Positions 22,735-22,888 of a stretch of 40,772 bases of DNA are shown piece after piece (the stretch's first letter is position 1; each line of letters begins with the position of its first letter). The translations under genes and the position numbers were made by a program. The notes under the pieces are model-generated. The model was not told the origin of the DNA. It saw nothing but the letters and a program-made list of their open reading frames with translations, and made no database searches. This stretch comes from a virus (Duplodnaviria; Heunggongvirae; Uroviricota; Caudoviricetes), in IMG/VR virus record IMGVR_UViG_3300028456_000002, positions 1 to 40,772 of that record. One strand, 5' to 3'.

Positions 22735-22809
22735 TGGAGCGGGTAGCGGGAATCGAACCCGCATCATCAGCTTGGAAGGCTGAGGTAATAGCCATTATAC
22801 GATACCCGC
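22735..22809 (-). tRNA. tRNA-Gly (anticodon UCC)
   Basis: Minus strand GCGGGTATCGTATAATGGCTATTACCTCAGCCTTCCAAGCTGATGATGCGGGTTCGATTCCCGCTACCCGCTCCA; 7-bp acceptor stem, loop CUUCCAA, encoded CCA. Confidence 0.85.
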
Positions 22810-22812
22810 ATA

Positions 22813-22888
22813 TGGTGCCGACTACCGGAATCGAACTGGTGACCTGATGATTACAAGTCAGTTGCTCTACCTACTGAGCTAAGTCGGC
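22813..22888 (-). tRNA. tRNA-Thr (anticodon UGU), with a weakened anticodon stem
   Basis: Minus strand GCCGACTTAGCTCAGTAGGTAGAGCAACTGACTTGTAATCATCAGGTCACCAGTTCGATTCCGGTAGTCGGCACCA; loop CUUGUAA; only 3 Watson-Crick pairs in the standard anticodon stem (ACUGA vs UCAUC). Confidence 0.75.

Follow-up and report, generated by a model that had tools for sequence, protein, structure and literature searches.

Why should a temperate phage carry a copy of a host tRNA gene in which the anticodon stem has been opened by two adjacent substitutions? The question is raised by a tRNA-Thr(UGU) gene in a 40,772-nt stretch of viral DNA (positions 1 to 40,772 of IMG/VR record IMGVR_UViG_3300028456_000002), which is referred to here in its entirety as the window and is a Rac/Qin-type lambdoid prophage in reverse orientation. 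ARAGORN calls exactly two tRNA genes in it, both on the minus strand and both also recognised by Rfam. The tRNA-Thr(UGU) gene lies at 22813..22888 and the tRNA-Gly(UCC) gene at 22735..22809; they are transcribed in that order, are separated by a 3-nt spacer, TAT, and each encodes its own CCA end. An earlier reading made from the letters alone (the sequence-only reading) had given the same coordinates, 3 nt apart, without stating a strand, had placed the pair between a methyltransferase and the lysis genes, and had noted a likeness to host thrU and glyT. All of this holds, the setting being borne out by Pfam matches to N6_N4_Mtase and to holin and endolysin families, and the likeness by the comparison that follows.

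The reference for this comparison, which was made base by base, is the thrU-tyrU-glyT-thrT-tufB operon of Escherichia coli K-12. The tRNA-Gly gene equals glyT at 73 of 75 positions, the difference being a compensatory change of one pair, C6-G67 to U6-A67, that is common to most prophage copies; its anticodon arm is that of the host, unaltered. The tRNA-Thr gene equals thrU at 74 of 76 positions. Its two differences, G42U and U43C, are adjacent (22846..22847 on the minus strand, position 43 being read from 22846 and position 42 from 22847), so that thrU ...AATCAGTAGG... has become ...AATCATCAGG..., and outside them the gene is 100% thrU. In K-12, thrU and glyT are 209 nt apart. Both tyrU and the operon spacers are missing from the window pair, and its 3-nt TAT spacer shows no recognisable trace of the sequences that flank the host genes (TCAAGTCC downstream of thrU, CCAGGAT upstream of glyT). 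Capture out of the thrU-tyrU-glyT operon with loss of tyrU is plausible, and it stays at that level because the junction shares no flank with the host.

The two substitutions break the C28-G42 and A27-U43 pairs. The anticodon stem, 27-ACUGA-31 opposite 39-UCAUC-43, is left with the mismatches A27.C43 and C28.U42 and with three Watson-Crick pairs, and in the alignment to the covariance model the top of this stem carries two pairs flagged as non-canonical ('vv'). The sequence-only reading had described just such a stem of three canonical pairs and was right to do so, as a normal 5-bp stem was not found. The remainder of the molecule is that of a regular tRNA. The acceptor, D and T arms and the CCA end are kept, the anticodon loop, CUUGUAA, is the thrU loop with a UGU anticodon that decodes ACA, and G1-C72, C2-G71, G35 and U36, which we take to be the identity elements of tRNA-Thr, are intact. 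At 76 nt the gene has the length of thrU, with no insertion, and lacks the 8-nt loop of sufJ-like frameshift suppressors. On the Rfam model RF00005, for which the gathering score is 29 bits, it scores 63.6 bits, lower than K-12 thrU (73.8 bits); the tRNA-Gly scores 65.6 bits.

The two altered positions coincide with those that experiment has linked to resistance against a known nuclease of this tRNA. P2 Old, the effector of the classic interference between phages P2 and lambda, kills mainly by destroying host tRNA-ThrU (PMC12445682, 2025). It cuts this tRNA after C28 and after C40 (28|29 and 40|41), in paired CNG motifs, and rescue by phage-encoded tRNA-Thr(UGU) is due to resistance to cleavage (PMC12445682). 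The determinants of resistance lie in the anticodon arm. Two changes are required together, one that alters a CNG motif and one that abolishes the 27-43 pair (U43A in tRNA-Thr6); a single change is insufficient, C28U/G42A alone included, and the shortened stem of tRNA-Thr21 from phage 21 protects (PMC12445682). The window allele alters exactly G42, which belongs to the 3' CNG motif and to the 28-42 pair, and U43, which belongs to the 27-43 pair. As a result, C-A-U stands in place of the 3' motif C40-A41-G42, and the sequence of the 5' motif, C28-U29-G30, is kept. All the sequence features of P2 Old resistance are thus found together, namely a UGU anticodon, a changed CNG motif, and a stem shortened because 27 and 43 no longer pair. 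The G42U/U43C allele is absent among the variants described in the text of PMC12445682.

We lean tentatively, and not quite to the point of conviction, towards reading the tRNA-Thr as an escape allele against an Old-type nuclease. This reading is favoured because both Old determinants are changed and because single-mutant intermediates are absent, as described below. On its sequence, the gene is more likely a cleavage-resistant spare than a decaying gene. The pair would then be a host-derived thrU/glyT cassette in a lambdoid late operon, supplying decoders of ACA (Thr) and of GGA/GGG (Gly), each of which has one gene on the host chromosome. Toprim nucleases that cut anticodon stems, with P2 Old as the prototype, kill infected cells through cleavage of host tRNA-ThrU after C28 and C40. 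By removing the G of the 3' CNG motif, unpairing C28 and A27 and leaving a 3-bp stem, G42U/U43C would make the phage copy a poor substrate, and ACA codons could stay readable after loss of the host tRNA. Template switching on an inverted segment of the adjoining tRNA-Gly gene may have produced both substitutions in one step. Resistance, function in translation and the mutational route are the parts of this scheme that we infer. The tRNA-Gly itself shows no escape-type substitution in its anticodon arm, UCAGC/GCUGA, which contains paired CNG motifs (C28-A29-G30 and C40-U41-G42) and A37, features reported for P2 Old substrates.

Two resistant tRNAs allow a closer comparison. tRNA-Thr21 of phage 21 (OL657228, 39671-39746) shares with the window allele the UGU anticodon and an identical loop, CUUGUAA, a location in a lambdoid phage between Q/pR'/tR' and the lysis genes, a 27-43 mismatch that shortens the stem, and an altered position 42. 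However, it is a diverged gene that follows a tRNA-Asn, and its arm, GUCGC/GCGAA, contains a single mismatch, positions 28 and 42 being paired as U28-A42. The window allele, in contrast, is thrU plus two bases, with two mismatches and with C28-U29-G30 kept; it precedes a tRNA-Gly, and its resistance is predicted. tRNA-Thr6, the strongest Old suppressor in a screen of a phage-tRNA library (PMC12445682), likewise combines a CNG change with a substitution at position 43 that breaks the 27-43 pair. It does so through a G30C/C40G swap plus U43A in a gene 12 bases away from thrU, whereas the window allele uses a change of G42 together with U43C.

If the allele were the private damage of one prophage, it should be solitary, and it is not. 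In an unbiased sample of viral contigs sharing the 3' half of thrU, positions 42-43 read GT in 113, TC in two and CC in one. A targeted scan of IMG/VR for contigs lacking G42 gave 30, with TC in 28, CC in two and nothing else, and on thrU-like scaffolds in the viral contig scan neither a G42-only nor a U43-only change was found. TC or CC occurs on at least nine backgrounds of tRNA or array type, among them unmodified thrU (the window and locus L149), thrU variants carrying C16, C16/C20, C16/C59, G24A or C2U, arrays of the composition Ile-Lys-Thr-Gly and CAU-Thr-Arg-Gly, and a separate scaffold of the JLK-2012 type. Among 5,426 complete E. coli genomes the thrU-TC form is present in about six and the JLK type in 14-25; the native host thrU reads GT in all 5,421 copies surveyed. 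Other combinations at 27/43 in viral contigs are all covarying G27-C43 pairs of unrelated environmental tRNAs, and were set aside as uninformative on this allele. An exact 33-mer of the variant arm has no match in 185,579 GTDB representative genomes, in which a looser non-G42 pattern finds mostly unrelated tRNA-Thr of Treponema and Victivallaceae, plus E. albertii and Xenorhabdus.

This pattern makes it very improbable that the gene is simply a tRNA turning into a pseudogene in a defective prophage. Three canonical stem pairs, the fall from 73.8 to 63.6 bits and a frameshifted terminase gene would all agree with such decay. However, the identical double substitution is present in dozens of independent contigs and contexts, random decay would be expected to scatter single changes rather than to produce one specific dinucleotide, and the gene still scores as a tRNA far above the model threshold. 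The sequence-only reading had offered impairment or decay as an explanation for the weak stem; as stated, this is not supported, since the double change recurs, is fixed on one scaffold and hits the Old determinants.

How, then, has the dinucleotide come to be shared? The flanks of the window are nearer to those of a GT-bearing prophage, L002 (1629 bits), than to those of any TC-bearing locus (986 bits), and three other TC/CC loci (L145, L024 and L141) are likewise nearest to GT-bearing prophages in their flanks. The allele is thus polyphyletic relative to its flanks, which implies either recurrent origin or exchange of short patches. The JLK-2012-type scaffold bears on what happens afterwards. 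This gene is a chimera, its first 26 nt being identical to tRNA-Thr21 of phage 21 and the remainder being thrU-TC. It had been taken for a long-diverged thrU that retained TC, an interpretation that was withdrawn after comparison with phage 21 (OL657228); its fixation and its compensatory change were kept as evidence. All 17 viral copies of the JLK type carry TC, in a scan that allowed any bases at 42-43. In one subtype the acceptor stem has been repaired, A5-U68 to G5-C68, and both anticodon-stem mismatches have been retained, and the scaffold is found across several serotypes of E. coli and also in E. albertii. Repair of the acceptor stem, retention of the mismatches and this spread together argue that, in TC-bearing genes, selection acts on the tRNA structure of the rest of the molecule.

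A possible source of the dinucleotide lies next door. Positions 38-45 of the tRNA-Thr (ATCATCAG, 22844..22851, minus strand) form an 8-nt perfect inverted repeat with positions 40-47 of the tRNA-Gly (CTGATGAT, 22763..22770, minus strand), the two arms being 73 nt apart. With the host-type Thr arm, ATCAGTAG, opposite the same Gly arm, CTGATGAT, the repeat contains two central mismatches. It is perfect only with TC, which is the single best of the 16 dinucleotides, and a tRNA-Gly template is present within 300 nt in 35 of 35 TC/CC copies. An inverted match of at least 8 nt is given by 19 of the 675 adjacent double substitutions possible in thrU (2.8%), a figure to be read in the light of the pattern having been noticed post hoc. 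A single event of quasi-palindrome template switching could give the double change, which would explain why TC recurs and why intermediates are lacking. CC has no template in the tRNA-Gly beside it and is probably a later change of U42 to C.

These observations also sustain the main rival account, in which the locus is a neutral mutational hotspot. Template switching would repeatedly convert GT to TC, and a neutral or mildly impaired allele would then drift and be shuffled among mosaic prophages, the phage copy being redundant because host thrU is still present. The restriction of the perfect repeat to TC and the Gly template near all 35 TC/CC copies are what this account predicts. We consider it rather doubtful as a full explanation. 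It does not sit well with the fixation of TC on a chimeric scaffold that has undergone a compensatory acceptor change and has spread across E. coli serotypes and E. albertii, nor with the CC allele, which retains both mismatches though untemplated, and it leaves the coincidence with both experimentally defined Old determinants unexplained. A spacer of 73 nt is, moreover, long for quasi-palindrome template switching. Judging from the repeat, the Thr-Gly tandem might serve as a built-in mutational device, in which one template switch from GT to TC removes both Old-type determinants and skips the single mutants. Single mutants with other substitutions at these determinants have been found by experiment not to protect. 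Such a device would explain the repeated dinucleotide on many prophage backgrounds, and we rate the idea as unlikely.

The stem could also have been re-registered rather than opened. For the TC allele ViennaRNA predicts a shifted 4-bp stem (C28-G45, U29-A44, G30-C43 and A31-U42) closing a 10-nt loop, at -23.2 against -20.3 kcal/mol for the canonical 3-bp arm. In this form the RNA might be no standard decoder, and might act instead as a nuclease decoy or as a tRNA of relaxed or shifted decoding. This nearest-neighbour folding leaves out the tertiary contacts and modifications of tRNA, and the predicted fold consumes A44 and G45, cutting the variable region to 3 nt. There is no insertion, unlike in the known frameshift suppressors with an 8-nt loop, and the resistance of tRNA-Thr6 does not operate through competitive inhibition (PMC12445682). 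Re-registration appears highly unlikely as the explanation. An enlarged loop had been among the suggestions of the sequence-only reading; it is present, with 10 nt, in the predicted shifted register, whereas the canonical alignment keeps a 7-nt loop.

A nuclease other than Old might instead be the one escaped. Several defences target tRNA-Thr(UGU), and the candidates are AriB of the PARIS system, HepS of Gifsy-1, or an uncharacterised nuclease of the OLD family. AriB cuts tRNA-Thr(UGU) at 40|41, beside the changed bases, and T5 tRNA variants altered around this site rescue (PMC12409363). Late-slot arrays in other prophages, furthermore, hold the AriB target set of Lys(UUU)-like, Asn(GUU) and Thr(UGU) tRNAs. 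However, the window gene has the AriB site, U36-A-A-U-C|A41, and the entire anticodon loop in their host form, and the AriB determinants that have been tested lie at 39 and 41 rather than at 42-43. Escape from PARIS was rejected as the primary reading, positions 36-41 being identical to those of host thrU. The T5 tRNAs resemble the window gene in being phage copies of a targeted tRNA with few substitutions beside the cleavage site in the anticodon stem-loop (PMC12409363). They differ in that their tested determinants, 39 and 41, lie within the segment that is untouched in the window, and T5 is virulent and encodes a large complement of tRNAs. HepS, which cuts the anticodon loop, responds to protein J of the lambdoid tail tip and attacks tRNA-Thr(UGU) secondarily; it recognises bases of the anticodon, however (PMC13043305). 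AriB and HepS are possible selective agents, less specifically supported than Old, and escape from any of these other defences seems to us quite improbable. Self-immunity, in which the tRNA would guard against a nuclease of the phage itself, was rejected, as no Old- or PARIS-like open reading frame (ORF) was found in the window. The only candidate, a stand-alone HNH endonuclease ORF of 151 aa in the nin-like region (29119-29574, minus strand), gives weak PADLOC matches to PtuB, the HNH protein associated with Septu and retrons, and is probably a generic HNH domain.

Several observations weigh against escape from an Old-type nuclease and have to be set beside the evidence for it. The published resistant tRNAs substitute other bases, and the 5' CUG motif is intact in the window allele. 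The shifted register is favoured by 2-3 kcal/mol for the TC, CC and JLK-type sequences and not for thrU; on this folding model it would restore a paired CUG/CAG motif, and it may not be competent in translation. The inverted repeat provides a purely mutational cause for recurrence. The allele is rare (three of 118 thrU-type copies in an unbiased viral sample, and approximately 0.1-0.5% of complete E. coli genomes), as is P2 old (17 of 5,426 complete genomes), and homologues of Gam, Bet and Exo were not found in the window, so that its phage is without the classical trigger of P2 Old. Some TC copies carry additional stem changes (G24A, C2U), the counts of such changes in TC and GT copies being too small for interpretation. 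One of them, the TC+G24A tRNA-Thr of locus L131 (3501-3576; E. coli M19, with relatives M6-M15), scores 54.8 bits with Rfam and is left unannotated by PGAP. The rarity of the allele and of P2 old, the lack of Gam and the extra stem damage fit the neutral hotspot as well. Finally, the large terminase gene (17570-19674, minus strand) is broken by a frame change into two ORFs, of 492 and 211 aa, as seen in a tblastn comparison with an intact homologue. DNA alignment traces the frameshift to a 2-nt insertion beside a T-run, with the junction at about 18,245-18,250 (GATGTTTTTTTGAT against GATGTTTTTC--AT), and the prophage may be defective or the insertion may be an assembly error.

What would follow if the allele is an escape form? 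Several prophage-borne nucleases (P2 Old, PARIS AriB and, secondarily, HepS) have lately turned out to converge on tRNA-Thr(UGU), and resistant phage tRNAs are a known countermeasure. The window allele is predicted to join the recently described class of nuclease-resistant phage tRNA-Thr(UGU), where it stands out in differing from the host gene by two bases and in having perhaps been templated. No smaller natural escape allele would be known so far; this one is carried on temperate lambdoid prophages that include toxin-converting relatives, and would offer a clean natural test of the two-factor rule of CNG motif and stem length. It would also mean that 'host-copy' tRNAs of ordinary appearance in prophages can be counter-defence genes, which calls for caution among annotators as PGAP omits some copies. 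A templated origin, if true, would provide a mechanism for the quick and repeatable evolution of such alleles. If instead the allele is sensitive or non-functional, the finding is that of a recurrent mutational hotspot in a redundant gene.

The setting of the pair is that of a late operon. Read in reverse, the gene order runs from an integrase and an excisionase through an 823-aa exonuclease, dicB, repressors and replication genes. There follow hok/sok, DUF968, RusA, Q, the methyltransferase, tRNA-Thr, tRNA-Gly, two holins, an M15 endolysin, DUF1441 and the large terminase. The late antiterminator Q (24666..25361, minus strand) is identified by Pfam Phage_antiter_Q (E = 1e-88) and by synteny with the annotated prophages L002 and L130, and the DNA methyltransferase directly upstream of the tRNAs (23058..23984, minus strand) by N6_N4_Mtase (E = 5e-38). 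Downstream lies the lysis cassette (21137..22174, minus strand; Pfam Phage_holin_8, Phage_holin_3_7 and Peptidase_M15_4), with the holins at 22174-21517 and the M15 endolysin at 21520-21137. Lying downstream of Q, the tRNAs belong to the late transcription unit. A consensus scan in addition finds a candidate sigma-70 promoter, TTGAAA-N16-TAATAT (22951..22978, minus strand), about 60 nt upstream of the tRNA-Thr. Both its hexamers are kept in 17 related loci and the spacer sequence is variable. The tRNA cassette may, judging from this motif, be transcribed without dependence on Q, possibly in lysogens. Between the tRNA-Gly and the holin there is a strong terminator-like hairpin and T-run (22355-22374, minus strand), inside a 120-aa ORF (22617-22255) that has no Pfam match and is probably not a gene.

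Elsewhere in the window, a hok/sok type I toxin-antitoxin locus (27764-28088, minus strand) is indicated by an Rfam sok match of 112 bits and a 70-aa ORF with Pfam HOK_GEF. The 823-aa protein of the early region (36665-39136, plus strand) has a C-terminal DEDDh 3'-5' exonuclease domain, Rv2179c-like, and stands at the position of lambda exo/bet/gam. The closest E. coli prophages show approximately 92-93% identity over about 70% of the early and late region.

The cassette itself is widespread. The Thr-Gly segment of the window is matched over at least 80% of its length in at least 288 E. coli genomes, and the late slot of many prophages holds Thr-Gly, at times with additional Ile, Arg, Lys or Asn tRNAs. 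Some examples adjoin stx (phi467) or LT-II toxin genes (SerU-LTIIb and strain 16F5M1D1), which bears out the earlier suggestion that this is the slot in which related phages carry tRNA and toxin genes. In Stx phages such as 933W, the tRNA genes ileZ-argN-argO lie downstream of Q and are usually read as codon supplementation. Like the window pair, these genes serve codons that are rare in the host and lie in the late region, with Q on one side and the toxin and lysis genes on the other; they are, however, other tRNAs, and we know of no report of anticodon-stem disruption in tRNAs of the 933W type. In the window phage, ACA makes up 13.8 and GGA 12.0 of every 1000 codons, roughly 1.5-2 times the usage in E. 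coli K-12, which we take to be about 7 and 8 per 1000. This fits a classical codon-supplementation role for the cassette as a whole.

Further variation is seen among the tRNAs of related late slots. In SerU-LTIIb (L003, 1122-1197) and in an IMG/VR contig (L095), the thrU scaffold carries switched anticodons, UCU (Arg-reading, with A31G) and UUU (Lys-reading, with A26G), which suggests that captured tRNAs undergo anticodon switching within prophage arrays. The arrays that jointly hold the AriB target set are those of L006, L008 and L266; their Lys-like gene has an unusual C33 and is unlike host tRNA-Lys at positions 39-41. The Lys-like gene that adjoins the TC+G24A copy of L131 is, like that copy, without NCBI annotation. 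A further IMG/VR contig (L029) carries no more of thrU than its 3' half, which starts at the anticodon loop and adjoins unrelated sequence, as would be expected if a phage attachment site lay within thrU.

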